Shown in pieces: positions 1,825 to 60,008 of a stretch of DNA of 64,000 nt (the stretch's first letter is position 1; every line of letters starts with the position of its first letter). Both the position numbers and the translations under genes were made by a program. The DNA lies in assembly GCA_021845725.1 (NCBI GenBank), contig JAJZVL010000003.1, forward strand, positions 1,806 to 65,805, read 5' to 3'. Below the pieces are notes generated by a model. That model did no database searches. It was not told the DNA's origin and saw only the letters and a list, made by a program, of their open reading frames with translations. The stretch is from Actinomycetes bacterium (GTDB taxonomy: Bacteria; Actinomycetota; Acidimicrobiia; Acidimicrobiales; RAAP-2).

Positions 1825-3884
1825 GCACGGTCGGTCTGCCAGCCTTGGATCGGCTGCGATCGAGAGCTGCCGCTCCAGTGTCTGTGCTGCTGGCGGACCG
1901 GTGGTGGGCGCCGGTCGGCGGTCTGGCGCTGGTGGGGGCCATGTTCTTCACGATGCCGATGTGGATGCCGGCCCTGGGCTTCCTGTCGGTCGAGGACGGA
2001 GTCACGGTCACCATCTACACCATGCTCGCCCTGGGGATGGTCCTCGTGCTCGGGTACTGCGGACAGCTCATGCTCGCCACGAACGCGGTGTTCGGAGTCG
2101 GGGCGTATGGGTTGGCGATTCTCGCGCTCCACGACGGCCTGAACCCGTGGGCAGGCATGGCCGTCTCGGCCGCTGCAGCCGGTGCCGGGGCGGCGCTCAT
2201 CGGCATCATGGTCTTCCGTTTGACCGGCCACCTCCTCGGCCTCGTCACGCTCGCCATCGGCTACATTGCGTTCATCGTCTTCGAGACGTCATCTCTCACC
2301 GGCGGTGCGAGCGGCATCAGCGTCGGGCCCAGCTTGGCGATCGGCAGTGCGGTCTTCTCCGGCGGAGAGAACAGCTTCTTCTACCTCTGCGCTGCAGCCG
2401 CGTTGATCTCGATCGTCGTCGCCCGGAACCTCGTGGTGAGCCGCACGGGAAGGGCACTGAGAGCCGTCGAAGCGAATGAAGCGGCTGCAGGCTCCGCTGG
2501 TGTCAATGCCACCCACTACAAGGTCGTCGCATTCGTCGTGGGGGCGGTCATCGCCAGCGTCGCGGGAAGCCTGTACGCCAACTACGTCGGCGTGGTCGGC
2601 GCCTCGTCGTTCACAATTCTCGTGACCATCGAGGTCCTTCTCATGGCAGTCGTCGGAGGGCTGCGCTCGATCTGGGGGGTTCCGTTCGGGGTCCTGGCCG
2701 TAGTGGTCTTCGAGGCGGCGCTTCAGTCATACGGTCCGGACTTGATCCACATCAACTCGTCCTACTTCACCACCATCGGCTTCGGCGTAGTGCTCATCCT
2801 CGTGCTCCTGCTGCTGCCCGGCGGGCTCGGGAGCGTCGGCGACAGGCTTGCTCGCATGGTCGGGTCTTCGAGATCCGATCCTGACGATGCGAACGTGGGA
2901 ACCTCGGCGGCGCGGTCCGTCGCCGCTTCGCTCGCGGGTCCCGGAGAGCCGTCAGCCAGCGGGCAGCCCGCGGTGGCGGTCGGGCTGAGGAAGGGGGCCT
3001 CGGGTCACACGAGGGGTCGAGTCGATCCGGATCCCCAGGCTCTTCTCGAAGCCGTCGCGGTGACGTGCCACTTCGAAGGACTGACCGCATTGGACGGGGT
3101 GAGCCTGGAGCTGCACGCGGGAGAGGTGGTCGGGCTGATTGGACCGAACGGAGCCGGCAAGACCACCTTCTTCAACTGCCTGTCGGGGCATGTGCAACCG
3201 TCTTCGGGCGTGGTGCGCCTCGGAGGCACCGACGTCACGGGCTTGCCCCCATATCGGATCGCCCGTCATGGGCTTGCGAGGACCTTCCAGAACATCGAGC
3301 TGTTCCCGGACATGTCGGTGCTCGAGAACGTCATGGTCGGAGCGCATCTCTGCGCGCACGCCGGAGCGGTCTCGGCCATCCTTCGCCTTCCCGGACATTG
3401 GCATGACGAGCGCGTTCTGGCTGAACGGGCGACGCACGCCCTCCAGCGCGTGGACATGGAACGACATGCGCCGCGCGCTGCCGGTACGCTCCCCTATGGC
3501 CAGCAGCGCCGAGTCGAGATCGCCAGGGCGTTGGCTGCGGAGCCCCATGTGCTGCTCCTCGATGAACCTGCTGCTGGGCTCAGCGCGTCGGAAGCGCAGG
3601 AGCTCGTCGAGCTCGTGCGAGCGCTGGCCAGCGAATCGCTGGGGATCGTCATGGTCGAGCACAACATGCGGGCGCTCATGAACGTGGCAGATCGAGTGAC
3701 CGTGCTCGACTCGGGCCGGCAGCTCCTGACGGCGCTCCCTGAGGAGGTCCGCAAGGATCCCGTCGTGATCGCGTCGTACCTTGGCACGAGCCATCTCGAC
3801 ATTTCCCACGCGCGTGCTCCCAGTGCTCCCGGTGCGAGCCCTCGGTCCGAAGACGTCTCGTACGTGCCGCAGGGCGACTCGTGA
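1821..3884 (+). CDS. Fused LivM-type permease and LivG-type ATP-binding protein in one ORF
   Basis: The N-terminal approximately 400 aa is a hydrophobic LivM-like permease. A low-complexity linker of approximately 60 aa follows, then an ABC ATPase with Walker A GPNGAGKTT, signature-like AAGLSASE and Walker B LLLDEPAAG. No stop codon separates the two halves. ATG 1821 overlaps the livH stop. Confidence 0.85.
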   Translation: MSTVGLPALDRLRSRAAAPVSVLLADRWWAPVGGLALVGAMFFTMPMWMPALGFLSVEDGVTVTIYTMLALGMVLVLGYCGQLMLATNAVFGVGAYGLAILALHDGLNPWAGMAVSAAAAGAGAALIGIMVFRLTGHLLGLVTLAIGYIAFIVFETSSLTGGASGISVGPSLAIGSAVFSGGENSFFYLCAAAALISIVVARNLVVSRTGRALRAVEANEAAAGSAGVNATHYKVVAFVVGAVIASVAGSLYANYVGVVGASSFTILVTIEVLLMAVVGGLRSIWGVPFGVLAVVVFEAALQSYGPDLIHINSSYFTTIGFGVVLILVLLLLPGGLGSVGDRLARMVGSSRSDPDDANVGTSAARSVAASLAGPGEPSASGQPAVAVGLRKGASGHTRGRVDPDPQALLEAVAVTCHFEGLTALDGVSLELHAGEVVGLIGPNGAGKTTFFNCLSGHVQPSSGVVRLGGTDVTGLPPYRIARHGLARTFQNIELFPDMSVLENVMVGAHLCAHAGAVSAILRLPGHWHDERVLAERATHALQRVDMERHAPRAAGTLPYGQQRRVEIARALAAEPHVLLLDEPAAGLSASEAQELVELVRALASESLGIVMVEHNMRALMNVADRVTVLDSGRQLLTALPEEVRKDPVVIASYLGTSHLDISHARAPSAPGASPRSEDVSYVPQGDS

Positions 3885-4678
3885 CCATGACCACCGCGAA
3901 CGATCAGCCTCTGGCGCTGAAGGTCGACGATCTCTCCGTGGCGTACGGGGCGGTCCGCGCGGTTCGCGGCGTGTCGCTCTCGCTCCGACAAGGTGAGTGC
4001 CTGGGCGTCGTCGGTGCGAACGGAGCGGGGAAGACGAGCCTGCTCGCCGGAATCTGCGGACTTGTTCGTCCCTCTGGTGGGAGGGTCTCGCTCGACGACA
4101 TCGCCATCGGGGGATTGAAAGTCGAAGAGACCGTTCGGCGGGGTCTCGTGCTGGTCCCCGAGCGGCGACAGCTCTTCGCCTCGATGTCGGTTCGCGACAA
4201 CTTGCTTCTCGGAAGCTACGTGCTCGGCCGGGAGCGGAAGGTGCCGGAGCAGCTGGAACGGGTCGAGGAGCTGTTCCCGATGCTGGCCCAGCGACGGGAG
4301 CAACGGGCTGGCACGCTCTCAGGCGGAGAGCAGCAGATGGTTGCGATCGCCCGCGGGCTCATGAGCTCGCCGCGGGTGCTAATGGTCGACGAGCCGTCCC
4401 TCGGTCTTGCCCCTGTCGTCGTCGACGCAGTGGTCGACGCACTGCGTGAACTGCGCCGACAAGGCATGACTCTGCTGATCGTGGAGCAGAACGTTCGCCT
4501 CGCCATGGCACTTGCCGACCGCCTTCTCGTGATGGAGCAGGGCGCTGTCGTGCGCCAGACGGCCGCCGATGCCGAGTTGGACGAAGAGACGCTGGTTGCG
4601 GCCTACCTCGGCGGACCCGCGGACTCAGAGTCGGATCGGCAGGCGGCCGACGAAGAAGAGGTGAGCAGGTTCGTGTGA
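3881..4678 (+). CDS. livF: ABC transporter ATP-binding protein (LivF family)
   Basis: Walker A GANGAGKTS, signature LSGGEQQMVAIARGL and Walker B LMVDEPSLGLAP. GTGA overlap with the upstream ORF. Confidence 0.9.
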   Translation: MTMTTANDQPLALKVDDLSVAYGAVRAVRGVSLSLRQGECLGVVGANGAGKTSLLAGICGLVRPSGGRVSLDDIAIGGLKVEETVRRGLVLVPERRQLFASMSVRDNLLLGSYVLGRERKVPEQLERVEELFPMLAQRREQRAGTLSGGEQQMVAIARGLMSSPRVLMVDEPSLGLAPVVVDAVVDALRELRRQGMTLLIVEQNVRLAMALADRLLVMEQGAVVRQTAADAELDEETLVAAYLGGPADSESDRQAADEEEVSRFV

Positions 4679-6043: not shown

Positions 6044-7519
6044 TCAGGACAGATCGACCGCTCCGAGAATTCTTCGGGGGTCGAAGAGCGCCTTGAGTGC
6101 CGCCTGGGCATCTCGGACGTCAGGACTGGATCGTCGGAAAGCCGATTCGTTCTCCGGGCCGAGACCGTGCTCCGCGCTGAACGCGCCGTCCGCGGCCGCG
6201 ATGAGATGGTACATCGCGTCACGTAGACGGTCTTGCTCGTCGTCACGTCGTTCGGCATGCATCTCTTGGGGCCAGATGACGATGGAGTGGATCCCCCCGT
6301 CGCCGACATGCCCGAAGTCGGCATATCGGGCATGCGGCGCGCTGCCTGCCACCAACGCGATGATCTGGTCACGCGTCTCGAACAGCTGCGAGCGCGGTAC
6401 CGAAAGATCGAACGCCACCATGGGTCCCTCCTGATGAAGGGCGGTGATCGCTGCGTGGCGAAGAGCCCAGAGTGTGGCGGGACGCCCGAACCATGCGTCG
6501 GTCACCCAGCCCAGCGCTGATCCCTCGCCGACGAGCGTCGTCAAGTCGTCTTCGAGGGTCTGATGACGGTCGTTCGCGGAGTCGGAAGTGCTCAGCTCTA
6601 CGAGGATGAGGAAGGGCGGAAGGTCGGAGGTGCGCGAGGGTTCGAAGGGCCACCGAATTCCAGAAGGAAGATGCTTGGCAATGGCCTCGAGCGTCGGCCG
6701 CGACAGCATCTCGTACGCGGCGAGATGCTCCATGGCTCTTGCTTCGAGCAAGGTCAAGAAGCGCAGCACGTCGTCGCCGTCGTGCACGGCGACCAGCGCG
6801 GTGGCAACGTGCCGCGCCAAGGGGTCCACGCTGAGCACCGCCGCCGTGACGATGCCGAGCGTGCCGCTGCTGCCGATGAAGAGGTGCTTCAGGTCTGGAC
6901 CACGGTTGTCCTTGCGGAGGCGCCGGAGCAAGGGCAGCACCGTGGCATGCGCGTCCGGCAGCACCACTTCCAAGCCGAGCACATGACGCCGAACGTCGCC
7001 GTGACGGATGAGGCGGGCCCCCCCGGTGTTCGCTGCAACCATTCCTCCCACCGACGGATTGGCTCCGAGGTCGATCGGCAGGGTGAGGCCATTGCGCGCC
7101 AATAGAACATTCAGGCTGTCGAGATCGACACCGGCACTGGCCGTCACCGTCCTGTTCGGCACATCGATCTCGATCATCGAGCGACAGAGCTCCATCGAGA
7201 CGACGCCTTGATGGCGGCCGGCTCGTGGGACTCCGGCGAGAACCGGACCGGTATTCGCGCCTTGGACGACGAACTCGGCGCGCTCGGCGTATGCCCAACG
7301 GACGATCGAGCGCACGTCCTCGAGGCCCTTGGGGCGAGCTACCCAGGAGGCCGGAGAGCGGCGACCCAGCACGTCCGTGTCATACCGGATGGTGTCGTCG
7401 CGGCCCGCGATGAGCACCTGCCCCGGACCGAGGAGCTCGTCGAGACGGCCCAGGGCTTCCGCCGTCGGAGCAGAGCCGGATGCACCCGGCTCGCTCGAGA
7501 CCGGAGAAGCACCAGCCAC
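6044..7519 (-). CDS. FAD-linked oxidase (GlcD / D-lactate dehydrogenase family)
   Basis: FAD_binding_4-like N-terminus (PKGLEDVRSIVRWAYAERAEFVVQGANTG, GANPSVGGMVAANTGG) and an FAD-oxidase C-terminal domain (AEHGLG). I chose the GTG at 7519 as start because the longer ORF (to 7660) would overlap the divergent paaX-like gene. Confidence 0.8.
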   Translation of the reverse strand: MAGASPVSSEPGASGSAPTAEALGRLDELLGPGQVLIAGRDDTIRYDTDVLGRRSPASWVARPKGLEDVRSIVRWAYAERAEFVVQGANTGPVLAGVPRAGRHQGVVSMELCRSMIEIDVPNRTVTASAGVDLDSLNVLLARNGLTLPIDLGANPSVGGMVAANTGGARLIRHGDVRRHVLGLEVVLPDAHATVLPLLRRLRKDNRGPDLKHLFIGSSGTLGIVTAAVLSVDPLARHVATALVAVHDGDDVLRFLTLLEARAMEHLAAYEMLSRPTLEAIAKHLPSGIRWPFEPSRTSDLPPFLILVELSTSDSANDRHQTLEDDLTTLVGEGSALGWVTDAWFGRPATLWALRHAAITALHQEGPMVAFDLSVPRSQLFETRDQIIALVAGSAPHARYADFGHVGDGGIHSIVIWPQEMHAERRDDEQDRLRDAMYHLIAAADGAFSAEHGLGPENESAFRRSSPDVRDAQAALKALFDPRRILGAVDLS

Positions 7520-23408: not shown

Positions 23409-25244
23409 ATGAAGCCAATGTTCTGCCGATGGAAGTCGTGGCTCGGGCCGAGCGCGGCGACCGCGATCACCGTGTCACTGGTGGCCGCCATGTCGGTGGC
23501 CGACGCGACGGGAGCATCCGCGGCGACCAGGAAGCACGCGACAGCCTCCAAAGGGGCGGTTGTCACCATGGCCGAGGGTGCGCAGGGGACCCCGAACAAC
23601 ATCATGCCGTTCGTGTCCGGCGCCAACAACTCGCAGGCCAACACGAACCTGCAGGAGCAGATGTGGCCCACGCTGTACACGATCGGCACGGCGAGAAACG
23701 TCAACGCGATCAACGGACCCTTGAGCCTGGCCGAGCCGCCCGTCTACAGCAATGGAGACACCCAGGTGAGCGTCACGCTCAAGCCCTACAAGTGGTCGGA
23801 CGGCACCTCGCTCACGGCCCGGGACGTCACGTTCTTCATGAACATCCTGAAGGCGAACAAGACAAGCTGGGCGCACTACACGCCGGGCGATATGCCGACA
23901 AACGTGGTCAGTTGGACGGCAAAGGGTGCCAATACCGTTGTATTCAAGCTGAACCGGGCATACAACCCGACCTGGTTCACCGATGACGAGCTCGCGTACA
24001 TCGTCCCGATGCCCCAGCAGGCGTGGGACAAGGAATCGGCTGCAGGGGCAGTCGGCACATACGACCTCACGACCGCGGGGGCAAAGGCCGTCTACAACTT
24101 CTTGAACACGCAAGGCGAGAACACTGCGACCTACGGTTCGAACCCGCTGTGGCAGGTGGTGGACGGAGCTTGGAAGATCAAGCAGTACACAAGCAACGGG
24201 TTCGTCGCTCTCGTGCCGAACACGGCGTACTCCGGCCCCGACAAGCCGAAGATCGCCAAGTTCGAAGAGGAGCCGTTCACGTCCTCGACAGCCGAATTCA
24301 ACGCGCTGCTGGGCGGAAACTTGGACATCGGCTACGTGCCTCTCAATGACCTTGCAGAGAAGGCGCGGGTCCAGGGTGCCGGGTACCGTCCGGTGCGTTC
24401 CGAGCTCGTCGCGGTGAACATGCTCTCGCTCAACTACTCCAGTCCGGTCGTCGGGCCGCTGGTCGAGCAGCTCTACATCCGCAAGGCGCTGAACGACGTG
24501 ATGGACCAGCCCGCGCAGATCTCGGCCATCTTGCACGGGTCGGGCGGGTACGTGGACTACGGTCCGATCCCGACCGTGCCGAAGACCCCGTACATGGCGG
24601 CGATCCAGAAGAAGAGCCCGTTCGACATCGCCGCTGCGCGAAAGCTGCTCATTTCCCACGGATGGAAGATCCCTTCGAACGGAGCAGCCGAATGCGTTCG
24701 CCCGGGGACGGGACCTTCGGAGTGTGGCGCCGGGATCGCCAAAGGTAAGACCTTGACCTTTTCGCTCGTCTATGTGAGCGGCAGTGGTTACCTGACAGCG
24801 ACCATGGAGAACTACAAGAGTGACGCGAGCGAGGCCGGTATCGTGCTGAACCTCTCGCAGCAGCCGTTCAACTCCATCGTCGGGGACATCTGCGGCACGC
24901 CGACATGCGACAGTCCCGGGTGGCAGATCGCCAACTGGGGCGCAGGGTTCTCGTGGAACTTCGGCTCGCCTTACCCGGTTGGAGCGACCATGTTCGAGGG
25001 GCATGTCGGGCTGGACTACCCGGTCCCGAAGAAGCTCGAGTCGCTCATCACCGCCACGGAGACCGCTCCGGTGTCCAAGACGGCGACGGCGATGAAGGCC
25101 TATGACTCTTGGGTGATCAAGAACGACCCCGAGGTCTGGCAGATCGAGACGTACACCTTGAATGCCGTGTCGAACAAGCTGAAGGGAGTCACGTTCTACC
25201 CGGTGACGGGGAACGTCTTCCCGCAGGACTTCGCAGTGAAGTAG
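23409..25244 (+). CDS. ABC transporter substrate-binding protein, family 5 (peptide/nickel/opine type)
   Basis: Signal-like N-terminus MKPMFCRWKSWLGPSAATAITVSLVAAMSVADA. Approximately 610 aa with a family-5 body (KWSDGTSLTARDVTFF). SD GAGGAAGG lies upstream of ATG 23409. Confidence 0.9.
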   Translation: MKPMFCRWKSWLGPSAATAITVSLVAAMSVADATGASAATRKHATASKGAVVTMAEGAQGTPNNIMPFVSGANNSQANTNLQEQMWPTLYTIGTARNVNAINGPLSLAEPPVYSNGDTQVSVTLKPYKWSDGTSLTARDVTFFMNILKANKTSWAHYTPGDMPTNVVSWTAKGANTVVFKLNRAYNPTWFTDDELAYIVPMPQQAWDKESAAGAVGTYDLTTAGAKAVYNFLNTQGENTATYGSNPLWQVVDGAWKIKQYTSNGFVALVPNTAYSGPDKPKIAKFEEEPFTSSTAEFNALLGGNLDIGYVPLNDLAEKARVQGAGYRPVRSELVAVNMLSLNYSSPVVGPLVEQLYIRKALNDVMDQPAQISAILHGSGGYVDYGPIPTVPKTPYMAAIQKKSPFDIAAARKLLISHGWKIPSNGAAECVRPGTGPSECGAGIAKGKTLTFSLVYVSGSGYLTATMENYKSDASEAGIVLNLSQQPFNSIVGDICGTPTCDSPGWQIANWGAGFSWNFGSPYPVGATMFEGHVGLDYPVPKKLESLITATETAPVSKTATAMKAYDSWVIKNDPEVWQIETYTLNAVSNKLKGVTFYPVTGNVFPQDFAVK

Positions 25245-53406: not shown

Positions 53407-55131
53407 TCAGGCTCCGTGCTCCCCGACCGCGGCGGTTTCCTTGCGTGCGCGGATGGCCGTCAAGAGCAGCTGGGCGGCCAGGCTGGCACCGACGCCTTCT
53501 CCTGAGCGCAACCGCAGCTGGAGCAGCGGCTCCACCCCGAGCTCGACCAGCACCCGCTCGTGTGCTGCCTCCCGGCTGCGTTGGCCTGCGATCAACGCGC
53601 TGTGGACCGCCGGTTCGAGGCGCATCGCGACCAGCGCGGCCACGGAGGTGACCAGCCCGTCGAGGACCACGGGAACCCGAGCACCGGCGGCGGCCACGGT
53701 GAGCCCTGCGAGGAACGCGAGCTCCGGACCGCCCACCGCGGCGAGGGCCACCTCCGGCCTCGAGAGCCCCTTGCCATGAGCGGACCGGGCGCGCGCCAGC
53801 CCCTTTTCCACGACGTCTCGCTTGCGTCGGAGCATCGCCGAGTCGGATCCCGCGCCCAGCCCGACGGCCTGGTCTGGATCCATCTCCACCAACGCGCACG
53901 CCAGGGCAGCGGCGACGGTCGTATTGCCGATGCCGACCTCCCCCAGGCAGACGAGGCCATCTCGGGCGACCCGCCTCCCGACCTCCTCCCCTGCCTGCAA
54001 CAACGTGGCAACGTCGGAGGGGTCGAGCGCGTCGGTGGTCACGATGTCGCCCGGAGGGCGGGTGGCGGTGGGGTGTGCCGCTTCGACGGCCAGGCCGGCC
54101 GCGCGCGCGGCCGCTGCCCCGAGGGAGACGCCAGCACGAGTGGCTGCGAGGACGTCGGCCGTCACCGACGGGGAGAACGCGGAGATGCCGTACCGCGTCA
54201 CCGGGTGGTCCCCGGCTGCGACCACGAGGGTCCCTGAGCTCGGCGGGTCCGGACGAAGCGCCAGGACCCGGTCGATCGCGAGGTCGAGGACCCCGAGCGA
54301 TCCTGGGACGGTCAAGCGGCGGTCACCCTCGTCACGCGCGGCGACGACCGCTGCCGGGTGGGGACCGGCAAGGTGCGACACCGGCGTCGCGGGTCCGCCG
54401 GTGACAGGCCAGCGCTCCTCGATGACGACATCGTCGAGGGGCAGCCGTTCCGACCAGCCGTGCCGCTCCAGTCCGGGGCTGGGCGGTCGCTCGTCCGGCC
54501 AGCCGATACAGAGCCAGCCCAGCGTCTCGACCCCCTCTGGCAAGCCGAGCAGCCCTGCCAGATCTTCGGGCTGGAAGAGCGTCACCCATCCGAGGCCGAG
54601 CCCGACGGCGCGTGCCGCCAGCCACATGTTCTCGACCGCGCACGCGCAGCTCCACATGTCGGTGTCGGCGAAGCTGGCGCGCCCAAGGACGCCCGCAGCC
54701 GGCACTCGCCGGTCGCAGGCCACGACCACCCCGAGAGGCGCCTCCCGGATGCCGTCGAGCTTCAGGTCGAGAAGCCGGGACCTTCGCTCCTCCGTGAGCA
54801 TGCCGGCCTGCCGGAGCCGCTCGCGGTCGGCGATCTGCGCCGCTCGGTCGCGCGTGGCCTGGTCTCGCACGACGATGAACCGCCACGGCTGGGAGTGCCC
54901 GACGGAGGGAGCCTGATGTCCCGCGGTGAGGATCCGGCGCAGGATGTCGGAGGGTACCTCGTCGGGACGGAAGCGGCGCACATCCCGACGCGCCGCGACC
55001 ACCTTGTGCAAGGCCTCCACCGTCGACGCATCGAAGGACCATCCTCGAGGGTGCGCCGCGCGCTCGGCCGCAGACGTCGGATCACCGATCAAGGGGACCG
55101 GGCGCGGCCACACGGCTCCGTCCATGCGCAC
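53407..55131 (-). CDS. Fusion of BluB (5,6-dimethylbenzimidazole synthase, nitroreductase fold) with CobT (nicotinate-nucleotide:DMB phosphoribosyltransferase)
   Basis: N-terminal RRDVRRFRPDEVPSDILRRILTAGHQAPSVGHSQPWRFIVV. C-terminal CobT motifs VVAAGDHPV and GEVGIGNTTVAAALACAL. Confidence 0.85.
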   Translation of the reverse strand: MRMDGAVWPRPVPLIGDPTSAAERAAHPRGWSFDASTVEALHKVVAARRDVRRFRPDEVPSDILRRILTAGHQAPSVGHSQPWRFIVVRDQATRDRAAQIADRERLRQAGMLTEERRSRLLDLKLDGIREAPLGVVVACDRRVPAAGVLGRASFADTDMWSCACAVENMWLAARAVGLGLGWVTLFQPEDLAGLLGLPEGVETLGWLCIGWPDERPPSPGLERHGWSERLPLDDVVIEERWPVTGGPATPVSHLAGPHPAAVVAARDEGDRRLTVPGSLGVLDLAIDRVLALRPDPPSSGTLVVAAGDHPVTRYGISAFSPSVTADVLAATRAGVSLGAAAARAAGLAVEAAHPTATRPPGDIVTTDALDPSDVATLLQAGEEVGRRVARDGLVCLGEVGIGNTTVAAALACALVEMDPDQAVGLGAGSDSAMLRRKRDVVEKGLARARSAHGKGLSRPEVALAAVGGPELAFLAGLTVAAAGARVPVVLDGLVTSVAALVAMRLEPAVHSALIAGQRSREAAHERVLVELGVEPLLQLRLRSGEGVGASLAAQLLLTAIRARKETAAVGEHGA

Positions 55132-55141
55132 GAGGCTAGAG

Positions 55142-55167
55142 CCACCGCGCGCATGCGGGCGCGGTGG
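55142..55167 (-). other. 9-bp-stem hairpin between the ATPase stop and the bluB-cobT start
   Basis: CCACCGCGC (55142-55150), 8-nt loop GCATGCGG, GCGCGGTGG (55159-55167). There is no U-tract. Confidence 0.35.
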
Positions 55168-55185
55168 ACGACGACGGTGCCCCGG

Positions 55186-57543
55186 TCACCGTGGATCAGG
55201 ACCTGGACCCGATCGGTGCTCCTGAGCGGCGCTCTCCTCACCGAGCGAGAGGTAGCTCTCGTCTTCTTGAGCCGTGTGCAGCCGCAGGACGGCGTAGAGG
55301 CCGTAGAGCAGCCCGCGAAGCTCGACGGTGTCCTCCTCGTCGAGACCCTCGGCGCCGACCTCGTCCAAGAGCTGGCCGAGGCGTCGCACCTGGTGGGCGA
55401 TCTCCACGTGCTCACGGCTCATCGGTCCGGTCGGGTTCGCGCCGCCGATCGCCCGGTCGAGCGCGGGGTAGAGCTCCCGGTCCTCTGCCTCCTCGTGGGG
55501 GAGGACCTCGTCGACCAGCAGCCGGTACACCTGGCGCGCCTGCGCCAGGGCAGCGGAGGCGTCGACCGTTCCGAGCGTGTCGGCGACCGCCCGCAGGCGC
55601 TCGGTCACCGCCCGGATGGACGCGTGCTCCTCGCGGAAGCGGCGAGCCAACGCCGAGCCTTCCTCGTCGAGGCGTCCGGGCTCGGGCCCGGGCCGCAGCG
55701 CCCGGAGCGCGTTCAGGATGACCGTCACGTCGATCCCCTCTTGCAAGAGGGCTCCCCACACCGCTGGCAGCCGCCCCAGGCCGGCGGCCGCCATCGCTGC
55801 CAGCGACATGGCCATGCCAGTGACGACGCTCTGGAGGGCGATTCGCCGGGTCCGCGCGGCGATCGAGCGCACCTGGGCGAGCCGGTCGAGCCGGTCGGTC
55901 ATGAGCACCATGTCGGCTGCTTCCGAGCTGACGGTCGCGCCGCGCGCCCCGACCGCCACCCCTACGTCGGCCAGCGCCAGCGCCGGAGCATCGTTGATGC
56001 CGTCGCCGACCATGACGGTTGGCGCGTGCCGCCGTTCCTCACGCACCACGTCGAGCTTCTCGACCGGAGAGCGCTCGGCCATGACCTCGTCCACCCCGAT
56101 CACGGCGCCGACCGTCTCGGCGACCTCGTGGCGGTCGCCGGTCACCATCACGATGCGGTCGATGCCGGCTTGTCGCAGGGCCCGGACCGTCCGGGCCGCA
56201 TCCGTTCTGATCGGGTCCTCGAGGATGAGGACGCCGGCCGGTTCTTCGTCGACCGAGACGAAGACGGTCATGGTGCCGTCGAGCCGGGCTCGGCGGCGCG
56301 CAGCCTTGGCCCACGACGGATTGCCCGTGATGCCCACCCACGCTGCCTTGCCGACCGCGACCGAGCGGTCGCCGACCTTGCCGCGGATGCCCTGTCCCGC
56401 CACCTCCTCGACCGCCTCGGGCAGCACGAGCGGCAGTGCTCGCGCTTCGGCCGCTTTGACCACCGCGCTTGCCAGGACGTGGGGCGACATCTGGTCGAGG
56501 GACGCGGCGAACCCCAGCACTGCGTCGGCGGTGTGGGTCTCGGCCGCGACGACCGACGCCACCTCGGGCCGGCCGGCGGTGAGCGTGCCGGTCTTGTCGA
56601 ACAGCAGGGTCGTGCACGACGCCAGCCGTTCGAGGACACCGCCACCTTTTACGACGATGCCCCGGCGTGCGGCCTGGGAAAGCCCTCCGACCAGGGCGAC
56701 CGGCGCGGCCAGGATGAGCGGGCAGGGAGTGGCGACCACGAGGACCGCGACGGCTCGGACCGCTCCCCCGGCAGCCCAGGCGATCCCGGAGCCGGCCAGG
56801 GTGAGCCCGAGGAACCAGAGCGCATAGCGGTCGGCGAGCCGGACGAACGGCGGCTGTGCCGCCTCGGCTTGCTGGACCAGCCGGACGATCCCCGAGTACG
56901 TGCTCTCTGCAGCGGTCGCGGTTGCCCGGAGATCGAAGGGCGGACCTGCGTTGGCCGACCCGCTACGGACGGGCTCGCGCGCCTCGCGCTCGACAGGGAT
57001 CGACTCGCCGGTCAGGGCCGACTCGTCCAGGACCGCTGCCGACTCGAGGTTCCCGTCGACCGGCACGAGCTCACCAGAGCCGACCATGACCCGGTCTCCG
57101 ACCGTGATCCGCTCGAGGGGAACCGTCTCGAGCCCCGAGCTCGTGTAGCGGTGGGCGATCCGCGGCGAGCGCTCGAGCAGGGCCCGCAGGTCGTGCCGGG
57201 CCCGCCCCGCCGCCCAGGACTCCAGGGCCCGGCCGGTCACGAGCATGGTGCTCACCACTGCCGCGGCCAGTCCCTCCCCGGTCCCAAGGGTTCCGACGAG
57301 GGCGAGCAGGGCGATGAGGTCCACCCCGATCCGCGCTCGTCGCAGGCTGTCGATCATCGTCCACAGGGAGTAGACCGCGCCGAACGCACCCGTGGCGTCC
57401 CACGCCACGTCGCCTCCTGCGGGAAGGCCGGCCATGTGCAGTGCCCCGCCGACCGCCAGCCCGGCCAAAGTCGCTCCCAGGAGCGCGACCGGGTAGCGCT
57501 GGACGAGCGCGGCGCAGCGTGGCCCGATCGAAGGAGTGCTCAC
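55186..57543 (-). CDS. P1B-5 type heavy-metal P-type ATPase with a C-terminal hemerythrin-like domain
   Basis: TPCP in the transmembrane region (VVATPCPLILAAP), DKTGTLT, VTGDRHEVAE, VGDGINDAPALA, and QEGIDVTVILNA in the last TM. No N-terminal CxxC domain. The C-terminal approximately 145 aa carry HHE-type repeats (FREEHASI, LPHEEAEDRELYP, SREHVEIAH, LHTAQEDES). Confidence 0.9.
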   Translation of the reverse strand: MSTPSIGPRCAALVQRYPVALLGATLAGLAVGGALHMAGLPAGGDVAWDATGAFGAVYSLWTMIDSLRRARIGVDLIALLALVGTLGTGEGLAAAVVSTMLVTGRALESWAAGRARHDLRALLERSPRIAHRYTSSGLETVPLERITVGDRVMVGSGELVPVDGNLESAAVLDESALTGESIPVEREAREPVRSGSANAGPPFDLRATATAAESTYSGIVRLVQQAEAAQPPFVRLADRYALWFLGLTLAGSGIAWAAGGAVRAVAVLVVATPCPLILAAPVALVGGLSQAARRGIVVKGGGVLERLASCTTLLFDKTGTLTAGRPEVASVVAAETHTADAVLGFAASLDQMSPHVLASAVVKAAEARALPLVLPEAVEEVAGQGIRGKVGDRSVAVGKAAWVGITGNPSWAKAARRRARLDGTMTVFVSVDEEPAGVLILEDPIRTDAARTVRALRQAGIDRIVMVTGDRHEVAETVGAVIGVDEVMAERSPVEKLDVVREERRHAPTVMVGDGINDAPALALADVGVAVGARGATVSSEAADMVLMTDRLDRLAQVRSIAARTRRIALQSVVTGMAMSLAAMAAAGLGRLPAVWGALLQEGIDVTVILNALRALRPGPEPGRLDEEGSALARRFREEHASIRAVTERLRAVADTLGTVDASAALAQARQVYRLLVDEVLPHEEAEDRELYPALDRAIGGANPTGPMSREHVEIAHQVRRLGQLLDEVGAEGLDEEDTVELRGLLYGLYAVLRLHTAQEDESYLSLGEESAAQEHRSGPGPDPR

Positions 57544-57617
57544 CTGCCCATCCTGACTTGTCGCGACCTGCTATTGACGGGCGAGCCGTCAGGCGACCCG
57601 CCGAGGTGGTCAGCGGC

Positions 57618-58427
57618 TCAGCTCTGGCCCGTGGGCGTGCGCGGTGATCCCTCGAGGTCGATGTGCTGGCGCACCCGGTCCGCGAGCGCTGAGGGGATGA
57701 CGCTATCGGGATCGTGCAAGGAGCCCAGGGAGGTCGTGGCCGCGACGAGCGACCGGTACAGGGGTGGGCACGTGGCGCACCGGGCGAGATGGGCCTCGAG
57801 CGCGGCGCGCTCTGCCGCTTCGAGCTCTCCGTCGACGTAGCTCGACACCTGTCGACGAGCCTCCCAGCAGCTGAGGGGAACGCCAGCGTTCGCCGTTCGC
57901 CGCTGTCCTCCTTGGGCCAGGGCACTCACGAGCATCATCCTTCCTCGTCGGATCCGCTGCTTGGCCGCAGCGACAGAGATGCCGAGCACGCGTGCGACCT
58001 CGTTCGCCGGCCACCCTTCTGCGTCGTGGAGCACCACGGCACTCCGGTAGTGCTGGGGGAGATGGATGAGCGCGTCCCGAAGATCGGCTGCGGACTCCGC
58101 ACGTTCGGCCACGGTCGCGGCGTCGACGCTGTAGCCCTCGTCACGCCAGCGGGTCTCCACGTCTTCGACACTGAGCTCGTGTGCGTGATGGCGAGCCCGG
58201 TCGATCGCCAAATGGTAGAGGACCTGGTGAAGCCAGGTCCGGATCGTCGCCTCGCCCCTGTACTGCTCGCCTCGCTCGAGGGCCCGCACGACGGCGTCAC
58301 CGACGAGGTCCTCTGCCTCCGCCTCGTTGGCCGTGATCGAGCGTGCGTACCGGTACAGCCCAGGGAGCTCCGCCGCCACTTGGGCGGCGAAGCTCCCGCT
58401 CGGCTCGGACGGTCCGTCGGCGACCAC
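57618..58427 (-). CDS. ECF-type sigma-70 factor with a fused C-terminal ZAS-like (zinc anti-sigma) domain
   Basis: Sigma region 2 (DLVGDAVVRALER...TWLHQVLYHLAIDRAR) and region 4 (LPQHYRSAVVLHDAEGWPANEVARVLGISVAAAKQRIRRGR). A 99-aa extension follows with C187-x25-H213-x3-C217-x2-C220 (SCWEARRQV...EAHLARCATCP, 57768-57869). No TM segment. Confidence 0.8.
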   Translation of the reverse strand: MVADGPSEPSGSFAAQVAAELPGLYRYARSITANEAEAEDLVGDAVVRALERGEQYRGEATIRTWLHQVLYHLAIDRARHHAHELSVEDVETRWRDEGYSVDAATVAERAESAADLRDALIHLPQHYRSAVVLHDAEGWPANEVARVLGISVAAAKQRIRRGRMMLVSALAQGGQRRTANAGVPLSCWEARRQVSSYVDGELEAAERAALEAHLARCATCPPLYRSLVAATTSLGSLHDPDSVIPSALADRVRQHIDLEGSPRTPTGQS

Positions 58428-58443
58428 GCGGCCAGTCTTGCGC

Positions 58444-58695
58444 TCAGGCTGCCCGGTGCAAGTGCGAGATCCGGCGCCCTTCGGCGTCGGTGTCCCGAGC
58501 CCCGGTCGTCCGGATCCTCAGAAGGCTGTAGAGGGGGCAGTACCCGCTGGCCGAGGTCACGACCATCACGGCCGCCACTGCGAGCAACACGATGCCCCAG
58601 GCCGTCGTGAAGCCCAGCACACCACTGCCTGCAACCGCCCCTGCTGCCACGACCACCCGGAGGGCTCGGTCCGTCGTTCCCATGTTCCTCTTCAT
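58444..58695 (-). CDS. DUF2892 (YgaP-like) small membrane protein
   Basis: 83 aa. DRALRVVVAAGAV..., two TM segments, and GYCPLYSLL motif. SD AAAGGAG lies upstream of the ATG. Confidence 0.75.
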   Translation of the reverse strand: MKRNMGTTDRALRVVVAAGAVAGSGVLGFTTAWGIVLLAVAAVMVVTSASGYCPLYSLLRIRTTGARDTDAEGRRISHLHRAA

Positions 58696-58742
58696 GGCTT
58701 GCTCCTTTGCTCGAAACGCTCAGAACCAACAACTCATAGACG

Positions 58743-58769
58743 AACGAGCCATGAAAAGAGATACATCCC
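58743..58769 (-). promoter_or_regulatory. Weak candidate ECF (SigR/SigH-like) promoter upstream of the DUF2892-sigma-ATPase genes
   Basis: The minus strand reads GGGAT-N19-GTT in an AT-richer patch approximately 48 nt upstream of ATG 58695. The spacer is 1 nt longer than the classical GGAAT-N18-GTT. Confidence 0.2.
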
Positions 58770-58796
58770 CTCCTCCTGCCCGGCGTCTCCGCCGGC

Positions 58797-60008
58797 TCAC
58801 TCCACCCGCTCGAACACCGCGGCGATCCCCTGTCCGCCGCCGATGCACATCGTCTCGAGCCCGAAGCGAGCCTGTCGGCGGTCCATCTCTCGCAGGAGCG
58901 TGGTGAGGATGCGGCAGCCCGTCGCGCCGATCGGATGACCGAGGGAGATGCCCGAGCCGTGCACGTTCAGGCGCTCGAGCTCGTCGTCGGAGAGCTTCCA
59001 CTCGCGCAAGACGGCAAGCACCTGAGCTGCGAACGCCTCGTTCAGCTCGATCAGGTCCATGTCGGCGAGGGACAATCCTGCGCGGCCGAGCGCCTTGGCG
59101 CTTGCCGGCACGGGCCCGATGCCCATGCGCTCGGGCTCGACGCCGGCGACGGCCCACGAGACGAGGCGACCGAGGGGTCGCAGGCCGAGCTCTTCGGCGA
59201 GGTCTGGATGCGTCACGACGCACACGGCCGCTCCGTCGTTCTGCCCCGAGGCGTTGCCCGCCGTCACGGTCGCCTCGGGATCCTGGCGCTGCAGCACCGG
59301 GCGCAACGCGCCGAGGGCGTCGAGGGTCGTGTCGCCACGCGGATGCTCGTCGGTGTCGACGAGGATCTCCTCGCGACCACGCCGCACCGTCATCGGGACG
59401 ATCTCCTCGGCGAAGATCCCCGCCTTCTGCGCCGCGACGGCGCGTTCGTGGGAACCCAGCGCGAGCTCGTCCTGCTCTCGCCGGCCGATGCCGTACTCGC
59501 GGCGCAGGTTCTCTGCCGTCTCGATCATCCCGCCGGGGATCGGATGGCGAGCCCCTCCGGCCGTCGCTCGGCCGCGAGCCAGGCGGTCGAGCAGCTCCAC
59601 GTTGCCTGCTCTCGATCCCCAGCGCATGGCGGTCGTGTAGTACTCCGCTTGGCTCATGCTCTCCACCCCCCCGGCGAGCACGAGGTCTGCGGCGCCGGTC
59701 TGGACCTCCATCGCCGCATACGCGACGGCTTGGAGACCTGAGCCGCACCGGCGGTCGAGCTGCATGCCGGCCGTCTCGATCGGCAACCCGGCGTCGAGCG
59801 CCGCGAGCCGCCCGATGGCGGGGGACTCGCCGTTCGGGTAGGACTGGCCGAGCACCACATCGTCGACGAGCGCCGGCGGGATCCCGGTGCGTGCCATGAC
59901 GGCGCTGACGACGGCGGTCGCGAGCTCGGCCGGCGGGGTGTCACGGAACGCTCCGCCGAAGGCACCCACGGCCGTGCGCAAGGGCTCGCAGATCACCGCG
60001 TCTCGCAT
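58797..60008 (-). CDS. Acetyl-CoA C-acyltransferase (degradative thiolase, PaaJ/FadA-like)
   Basis: MRDAVICEPLRTAVGAFGG, RRCGSGLQA, NASGQNDGAA, NEAFAAQ, GHPIGATGCRI and CIGGGQGIA. An alternative ATG lies at 60026. Confidence 0.9.
   Translation of the reverse strand: MRDAVICEPLRTAVGAFGGAFRDTPPAELATAVVSAVMARTGIPPALVDDVVLGQSYPNGESPAIGRLAALDAGLPIETAGMQLDRRCGSGLQAVAYAAMEVQTGAADLVLAGGVESMSQAEYYTTAMRWGSRAGNVELLDRLARGRATAGGARHPIPGGMIETAENLRREYGIGRREQDELALGSHERAVAAQKAGIFAEEIVPMTVRRGREEILVDTDEHPRGDTTLDALGALRPVLQRQDPEATVTAGNASGQNDGAAVCVVTHPDLAEELGLRPLGRLVSWAVAGVEPERMGIGPVPASAKALGRAGLSLADMDLIELNEAFAAQVLAVLREWKLSDDELERLNVHGSGISLGHPIGATGCRILTTLLREMDRRQARFGLETMCIGGGQGIAAVFERVE

Follow-up and report, generated by a model that had tools for sequence, protein, structure and literature searches.

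A soluble ECF sigma factor fused to a zinc anti-sigma domain and paired with a DUF2892 gene: a conserved actinobacterial family and its shared promoter-like site

The window considered here is a stretch of 64,000 nucleotides from an actinobacterium of the order Acidimicrobiales (GTDB lineage RAAP-2; GenBank assembly GCA_021845725.1, contig JAJZVL010000003.1, positions 1,806 to 65,805 of the forward strand). Towards its end lies a gene whose product joins an extracytoplasmic function (ECF) sigma factor and a zinc anti-sigma (ZAS) domain in a single chain, referred to below as sigma-ZAS. No separate zf-HC2 or RskA-type anti-sigma gene was recognized by Pfam at the locus, where the neighbours are a P-type ATPase gene downstream and a gene for a YgaP-like transmembrane (TM) protein upstream. 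The gene and its parts, in window coordinates, are the following.

57618 to 58427, minus strand: sigma-ZAS gene, GTG start, 269 aa, beginning 16 nt past the stop codon of the DUF2892 gene
58182 to 58376, minus strand: sigma region 2, residues 18-82 (Pfam Sigma70_r2, E 9.9e-13, 48.1 bits, cut-off 24)
57930 to 58085, minus strand: sigma region 4, residues 115-166 (Pfam Sigma70_r4_2, E 1.4e-14, 53.9 bits, cut-off 25.7)
57870 to 57929, minus strand: residues 167-186, a fixed-length linker with the family consensus ERRxANxGVPLS-C
57651 to 57869, minus strand: anti-sigma domain, residues 187-259, with putative zinc ligands C187, H213, C217 and C220

The protein belongs to the ECF (group 4) sigma-70 factors, as it contains regions 2 and 4 only and scores above the cut-offs of the family models, including the ECF superfamily model TIGR02937 (75.7 bits, cut-off 42.9). 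None of the NCBIfam equivalog cut-offs is reached by the 269-aa sequence, and the closest sigma factors of solved structure are SigE and SigH of Mycobacterium tuberculosis and SigW of Bacillus subtilis. Residues 189-220 match Pfam zf-HC2 (E 2.9e-10, 40.5 bits, curated cut-off 22.2), a score so far over the cut-off that the motif is well beyond chance. Cysteine occurs at just three positions of the protein, C187, C217 and C220, and is absent from residues 1-186; together with H213, which lies between C187 and C217, these residues form the pattern C-x25-H-x3-C-x2-C, which comprises the HxxxCxxC signature of ZAS proteins (H213/C217/C220) and an upstream ligand, C187, about 25 residues before it. 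The highest mean Kyte-Doolittle hydropathy over 19 residues is 0.68, and the protein is thus devoid of TM helices. A sequence-only reading of this DNA had proposed a chain that unites an ECF sigma factor and a ZAS-type domain, with an RsrA-like ligand pattern at these positions, no TM segment and no separate anti-sigma gene. All of this is borne out by the three Pfam matches within one open reading frame (ORF), by the hydropathy profile, by the Pfam annotation of the neighbours and by the invariance of the ligand pattern across the family.

Since a few database relatives look frameshifted, errors of this kind do occur in metagenome data, and it could be asked whether two genes, one for a sigma factor and one for its anti-sigma factor, have been joined here by a sequencing or assembly error; no direct support for such an artefact was found. 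The contigs of four independent metagenome runs (from mine tailings, mine drainage and sediment) tile the ORF with no gaps, an identical 269-aa product is called on 15 independent contigs, and the same fusion, with a fixed linker length, recurs in more than 200 homologues. The sequence-only reading had itself named a stop between two ORFs as the observation that would overturn it, and neither a stop nor a frameshift is found in the independent assemblies. The artefact explanation is therefore refuted, and the probability left to it is practically nil. A minor strain variant from run X2 (57682-57973) differs at 27 positions; it gains one nucleotide at 57851 and loses one at 57854, and the frame is kept. 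The fusion is also found in RNA: a metatranscriptome contig from mine drainage (57817-58056) crosses the junction between region 4 and the extension, and the junction between the DUF2892 and sigma genes is likewise spanned in the mine-drainage metatranscriptome, which indicates that the locus is transcribed. Several apparently unfused relatives found in the search of representatives (P0128, P0133, P0135 and others) look like frameshifted gene calls and not like true sigma-only forms.

Sigma-ZAS is a real, conserved actinobacterial gene family. A word-indexed protein search returned 1085 proteins at E <=1e-5, and the best 120 homologues, 226-334 aa long, all contain sigma2, sigma4 and zf-HC2. 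An exhaustive profile search of 1.84 billion representatives gave 96 proteins at E <=1e-30, together with remoter soluble sigma-ZAS fusions of 250-290 aa. By a scan of one genome per species, 150 loci were confirmed, all in Actinomycetota. The locus comparisons below use the 80 of these that were kept; they belong to Acidimicrobiia, Micrococcales (Pengzhenrongella, Ornithinimicrobium, Phycicoccus, Dermatophilaceae), Nocardioidaceae, Gaiellaceae and Nanopelagicales. A second genome scan, based on the alignment of the remote family, was swamped by generic ECF sigma factors, and its informative loci are limited to L081-L086. Because the family is present in cultured Micrococcales, it may already sit within the published ECF classification. 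Some genomes contain two or more paralogous cassettes of a DUF2892 gene and a sigma-ZAS gene (L047 and L067; L002 and L008; L055 and L061; L060, with two copies on one contig), and the complete genome of Pengzhenrongella phosphoraccumulans is among them. A remote relative of 616 aa, P0246, is a triple fusion in which sigma2-sigma4 and zf-HC2 are joined to a pyridine-nucleotide-disulfide oxidoreductase domain.

Conservation is not confined to the sigma domains. In an alignment of 50 sequences, C187, H213, C217, C220 and P221 are invariant; R176, A179, N180, V183 and L185 in the linker, and D239, P240, D241, V243 and P245 in a motif after helix 3, are invariant or nearly so; and the linker and extension are conserved as strongly as the sigma core. 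The C-terminal tail is not conserved in this alignment, and family members, 243-334 aa in length, extend only a little beyond helix 4. Across 248 full-length fusions, with identities as low as 22%, the four ligand positions are retained in 245-247, and the Cys-to-His spacing is 26 in nearly all of them. R163 and C187 are 24 residues apart in every one of the 171 sequences that are at least 50% identical, and 20-24 residues apart in most remote fusions. Around the CxxC the protein reads H-L-A-R-C-A-T-C-P-P, against a family consensus of HL[AGS]xC[AV]TCPP.

The extension is predicted to adopt the fold of known anti-sigma domains. Two independent AlphaFold2 (AF2) runs place helices at residues 187-198, 204-216, 221-236 and 246-259, which corresponds to the four-helix class-I topology, with a predicted local distance difference test (pLDDT) of 85-93 over helices 1-2 of the extension. 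In a Foldseek comparison, the modelled region 4 matches sigma-4 domains with a root-mean-square deviation (rmsd) of 1-2 A. The solved anti-sigma domain nearest in sequence is that of RslA (3hug_B, profile match E 1.2e-3), and a sequence search with the extension failed to recover RsrA at E values of up to 10. In class-I domains the HxxxCxxC motif extends over helices 2-3 and is preceded, at about 25 residues, by a Cys or His ligand. Domains of this class contact sigma4 through helix 1 and sigma2 through helix 4 (PMC7406223). The RslA CXXC is known to oxidize to a disulfide, to release its zinc and to bind SigL less tightly (PMC2877774). A domain that folds back onto its own sigma factor would be subject to a geometric constraint, and the linker of the family, conserved and constant in length, fits this.

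Upstream of sigma-ZAS, the two elements that complete the predicted operon are the following.

58444 to 58695, minus strand: DUF2892/YgaP-like gene, 83 aa, two hydrophobic helices (Pfam PF11127, E 2.1e-18), first gene of the predicted operon
58734 to 58765, minus strand: ECF-type promoter-like site TGTATC-N17-CGTCTATGA, with a -35-like GTATC at 58764-58760 and a -10-like CGTC at 58742-58739 (45.5 bits by position weight matrix, PWM)

The constant partner of sigma-ZAS is the DUF2892 gene and not a metal pump. A DUF2892 homologue adjoins the sigma gene in 79 of the 80 loci (by tblastn, ORF reading and a hidden Markov model of the family), upstream in 76, downstream in 3 and always on the same strand, and clustering of the ORFs of all 80 loci revealed nothing besides these two genes that is common to more than 8 loci. 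The gap between them is 16 nt here, and in many other loci the genes seem to abut or overlap, as estimated from alignment starts and not from mapped start codons. An RNA-derived contig covers 58422-58687. Among 68 sequences of the DUF2892 protein, D9, R13, G28, T47, C53, P54 and Y56 are invariant, which defines a C53-P54-x-Y56 motif. Remote fusions in Thermoleophilia and in a Nocardia metagenome-assembled genome also adjoin a YgaP-like TM gene, and two of them have the same promoter. The cytoplasmic tails of the DUF2892 proteins (58444-58500, minus strand, in this window; homologues in L001-L044) are rich in His, as in HRISHLHRAA and ERHHRGASAH; in Acidimicrobiia these tails end in -AA, which recalls C-terminal degrons of the ClpXP type.

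The promoter-like site, which ends 43 nt before the DUF2892 start codon, is a shared property of the family. When the 150 nt upstream of DUF2892 genes were searched without bias for bipartite words, GTATC-N17-CGTC emerged in 62 of 67 regions, against a maximum of 4 in shuffled sequence. The aligned consensus is tGTATCc.T...cTCGtgCGTCtATG, and the sites end 28-80 nt before the start codon. The -35/-10 geometry and a CGTC -10 element are typical of ECF promoters. SigR and SigH promoters are of the GGAAT/GTT type, as opposed to the GTATC found at -35 here. A PWM scan of the 64-kb window returned this single site; the runner-up, at 24744-24775 on the plus strand (GGTAAG...CTCGTCTATGT, 11.6 bits), combines a good -10-like half with a poor -35 and is probably a chance match. 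In 740 kb of related loci, sites occur solely upstream of DUF2892 genes (76 of 79 loci), and the site accompanies the DUF2892 gene even when this is downstream of the sigma gene (L016, L024, L025). In a further locus, L162, the promoter precedes a DUF2892 gene and a methyltransferase gene on the strand opposite to the sigma gene; features of this locus lie at 3435-4388 and 6105-6680, both on the minus strand, and a rhodanese-YgaP fusion is encoded just downstream of its sigma gene. TehB-like methyltransferase genes follow the sigma gene in L161 and in a few other loci. Scans of 55000-59000 for sigma-70 promoters and terminators, and of 57300-59000 against Rfam, gave nothing. This distribution, together with the analogy to other autoregulated ECF operons, leads us to infer that sigma-ZAS recognizes the GTATC/CGTC promoter of its own operon.

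Some hints on the nature of the signal come from the wider gene context. Beside the cassette, 20 of the 80 loci encode a thioredoxin (13), a CsoR-family repressor with a C-N-C pattern (12), a rhodanese (10) or a homologue of the TauE sulfite exporter (8). The repressor has C36, N61 and C65 at the positions of the copper ligands of CsoR and no His ligand, which is the pattern of the persulfide sensor CstR. In the Micrococcales loci L047, L055, L058, L059 and L074, a cst-like set of genes (repressor, thioredoxin, rhodanese and TauE) is found 1-6 kb from the cassette. As for the DUF2892 family, it has been reported that a gene of this kind is induced about 10-fold by H2S in Azospira (PMC5358917) and that another is cotranscribed with trxC in Bradyrhizobium (PMC6710368). 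Taken together, these neighbours, the fusions in L162 and P0246, and the literature on DUF2892 suggest that the signal is thiol or reactive-sulfur stress rather than a specific metal.

The gene that follows sigma-ZAS in the window is the P-type ATPase.

55186 to 57543, minus strand: P1B-type ATPase, 785 aa, hemerythrin domain at the C-terminus, separated from the upstream sigma gene by 74 nt (Pfam E1-E2_ATPase, Hydrolase, Hemerythrin; TIGR01525, 505 bits)

A TPCP motif is present in the membrane part of this protein, and residues 634-765 form the hemerythrin domain (PF01814). The same architecture has been described for P1B-5 ATPases, whose substrate, like the part that their hemerythrin domain plays, is unclear (PMC9388753). 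The sequence-only reading had taken this neighbour as an argument from context, and the comparison of loci does not sustain it: the ATPase gene comes after the sigma gene in no loci but L001-L003, whose identity is 95% or more, and is gone in L004 (90%) and in the other 76 loci. Even among the loci that have it, the gap to the sigma gene varies, being about 150 nt in L002 and L003 as compared to 74 nt here and in L001. The PWM scan of the window found no family promoter upstream of the ATPase gene. The gap at 57544-57617 (minus strand) contains CTCGCCCGTCAATAG, which resembles the -10 half without a GTATC at the right distance, and no terminator-like site was found in these 74 nt. The ATPase may thus be described as a recent, lineage-specific passenger outside the conserved module, which may be reached by read-through from the operon.

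On the whole, the evidence leans, if modestly, towards an autoregulated operon of a DUF2892 gene and a sigma-ZAS gene, in which the sigma factor would be held inactive in cis by its zinc-bound domain and released by thiol-reactive stress. The GTATC-N17-CGTC promoter would drive the DUF2892 gene and, 16 nt on, the sigma-ZAS gene. Recognition of this promoter by the sigma factor itself would give rise to positive feedback, with the DUF2892 protein as the main output. At rest, the zinc-loaded four-helix extension would fold back by means of its fixed-length linker and occlude regions 4 and 2 of the same chain, an occlusion in cis that would mirror the action in trans of free ZAS proteins. Oxidants, electrophiles, reactive sulfur species and, possibly, soft metals (given that this is a mine-drainage organism) would attack the zinc thiolates; upon loss of zinc, the domain would let go and the sigma factor would bind core RNA polymerase. 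Read-through may also lead to expression of the P1B-5-type ATPase downstream, in this organism alone. Zinc binding, inhibition in cis and the nature of the signal, like the read-through, are points that we infer.

Several observations weigh against this proposal or lend it no support. The predicted template modelling score (pTM) of the AF2 models is moderate, at 0.53 for the full-length protein and 0.61 for sigma4 plus extension, and the modelled layout of sigma2 and sigma4 matches no solved sigma factor in its anti-sigma-bound state (Foldseek against the PDB, rmsd >=13 A); this comparison returned sigma chains only, and the truncated model was matched through sigma-4 alone. Mean-field direct coupling analysis of the 248 fusions (effective number of sequences, Meff, 132) recovered plausible pairs within domains and no enrichment of couplings of helix 1 with sigma4, of helix 4 with sigma2, or of the extension with the core in general. 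The link between the sigma factor and the GTATC/CGTC promoter is one of co-occurrence. Sulfur-related neighbours are found in a quarter of the loci only, and none lies near the cassette in this window. Moreover, mutagenesis of RsrA has defined a signature of redox sensitivity, namely acidic residues ahead of the first Cys of the CxxC and, following the second, Leu and a charged residue (PMC3177212), and the CxxC of sigma-ZAS is instead preceded by A-R and followed by P-P. Finally, a ZAS motif by itself is no proof of redox sensing, since RsiW possesses one and is not a redox sensor (PMC7406223).

The main rival explanation is built on these last points. The zinc could be structural, and the domain could be removed or displaced by regulated proteolysis or through the DUF2892 protein, acting as the true sensor or as a tether. 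The lack of the RsrA-type redox determinants (PMC3177212) agrees with this, as does the fact that many zinc-motif anti-sigma domains are not sensors and that some are purely structural (PMC7406223). Proteolysis is, besides, the mechanism expected for the fused ZAS extensions of ECF48, ECF52 and ECF53 (PMC8999054). A 16-nt gap here and an apparent overlap or abutment in many loci are typical of interacting partners, and an invariant Cys is present in the DUF2892 protein, whose tail in Acidimicrobiia is rich in His and ends in -AA. However, there is no TM helix that could bring the extension to a membrane protease, no protease gene is conserved among the clustered ORFs of the 80 loci, and the C-terminal tail of the sigma factor is not conserved. 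The promoter, for its part, tracks the DUF2892 gene as a target, which fits a role as output as well as a role as regulator. This explanation is regarded as rather unlikely.

A different role for the metal was also raised by the sequence-only reading, which saw a parallel between the gene context here and CorE-type sigma factors that respond directly to metals and control P1B ATPases; on that view, sigma-ZAS would be a CorE-like metal sensor in control of the adjacent P1B ATPase. The ATPase gene does lie on the same strand, after a gap of 74 nt in which no terminator-like site was found, the organism comes from mine tailings and mine drainage, and zinc-thiolate sites can be attacked by soft metals. 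The parallel fails, however, on the features by which CorE-like factors (ECF44/ECF238) are defined, that is, a CxC motif located in the linker that connects sigma2 with sigma4 and a Cys-rich C-terminal tail required for activity (PMC6851896). Sigma-ZAS has no CxC, its first 186 residues being free of Cys, and in place of a Cys-rich domain of 21-50 residues it has an extension of 99 aa with three Cys, all within a domain of anti-sigma fold. Nor is the tail of CorE an anti-sigma domain: the factor depends on it for activity (PMC6851896). A metal-related neighbourhood is not conserved either: the ATPase adjoins the sigma gene in 3 of 80 loci and lacks a family promoter. No RNA contig of this organism over the ATPase gene was found in the one metatranscriptome that covers the sigma gene, which is weak evidence. 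Direct metal sensing of this type is accordingly judged improbable. Quite improbable, too, is the view that the extension, instead of being an inhibitor, acts positively and is required for sigma activity or for recognition of the promoter, as in ECF41, ECF42 and CorE. Several fused C-terminal extensions do activate (PMC8999054, PMC6851896), and conservation of the linker and extension as strong as that of the sigma core would suit such a role, but the extension is homologous to anti-sigma domains whose role is known to be inhibitory (PMC2877774, PMC7406223).

A more speculative proposal, to which little probability is assigned, would make the DUF2892 protein the other half of a split membrane sensor. 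The invariant Cys of its C-P-x-Y motif, at the edge of the membrane, and its His-rich tail would be joined to the ZAS domain by a shared metal or by a mixed disulfide or persulfide, and the sigma factor would stay at the membrane for as long as this link is not broken by reactive sulfur species or thiophilic metals. If this were true, it would represent a division of sigma, anti-sigma and sensor of an undescribed type and would provide a first function for the widespread DUF2892 family.

Returning to the autoregulated switch, sigma-ZAS can be compared with several known systems. Fused zinc-finger extensions have been described in ECF48, ECF52 (SCO4117 of Streptomyces coelicolor), ECF53 and some ECF270 proteins (PMC8999054, PMC5826349). 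All of these, like sigma-ZAS, are actinobacterial ECF sigma factors with zf-HC2 fused after region 4 and no separate anti-sigma gene. According to their descriptions, ECF48, ECF52 and ECF53 possess TM helices, one to two or more in number, their extensions can reach 400 residues, and proteolytic activation is expected (PMC8999054). Measured against those descriptions, sigma-ZAS is soluble, has no TM helix, and consists beyond region 4 of a 99-aa extension that is the anti-sigma domain only. The family is, in other words, a soluble, minimal form of fused-ZAS sigma factor.

The two-chain systems are close in other respects. SigR-RsrA and SigH-RshA share with sigma-ZAS a soluble ZAS domain, the pattern C-x25-H-x3-C-x2-C, an autoregulated operon (predicted for sigma-ZAS) and an actinobacterial host, and the ligands of RsrA are C11, H37, C41 and C44, so that the offset of 26 between C11 and H37 equals that between C187 and H213 (PMC3177212). 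They differ in that two chains are involved instead of one, and in that the CxxC of RsrA is flanked by E-E and L-E, as compared to A-R and P-P in sigma-ZAS. RslA, the partner of SigL in M. tuberculosis (PDB 3HUG), aligns with the extension over HLAxCxxC and helix 3, binds zinc and releases it upon oxidation of its CXXC; unlike the extension, it is a separate, membrane-anchored protein, and the identity is low and extends over about 48 residues only. CorE and CorE2 of Myxococcus xanthus (ECF44, now in ECF238) likewise have no separate anti-sigma factor and bear Cys in a C-terminal extension. Their tails of 21-50 residues are Cys-rich and their linkers contain CxC, in contrast to the anti-sigma fold and CxC-free linker of sigma-ZAS, and CorE controls P1B ATPases, whereas the metal-related context of sigma-ZAS is not conserved. 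As regards the partner gene, YgaP of Escherichia coli, which consists of a rhodanese and a DUF2892 TM domain, belongs to the same TM family, PF11127, and rhodanese genes are found near some cassettes; the DUF2892 domain of the partner differs in standing alone (about 70-100 aa) and in being genetically coupled to a sigma factor. No mention of this coupling or of the GTATC/CGTC promoter was found in the searchable literature. Sigma-ZAS probably acts as a thiol-stress switch complete in itself, and the general kind of switch is one already known.

Elsewhere in the window, the interval 53407-55131 (minus strand) encodes a 574-aa fusion of a BluB-like nitroreductase and a DBI_PRT (CobT-type phosphoribosyltransferase) domain beside TP_methylase genes, which looks like a module for the lower ligand of cobalamin.

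Among sigma factors, those of the ECF type that carry fused regulatory extensions are regarded as the counterpart of one-component systems, and no experimentally shown mechanism for a fused zinc anti-sigma domain was found in the searchable literature. Sigma-ZAS offers a compact model with a clear read-out, namely one conserved promoter and one small conserved target gene, and as cultured relatives (Pengzhenrongella, Ornithinimicrobium) carry the family, the question of a thiol switch in cis is directly testable. For annotation, a note of caution follows: the neighbouring metal ATPase should not be taken as a conserved regulon of sigma-ZAS. With regard to the DUF2892/YgaP-like domain, which is uncharacterized, the cassette ties it to a dedicated stress regulator and, in part, to genes for persulfide and thiol handling, and it provides a first regulatory handle on DUF2892 proteins.

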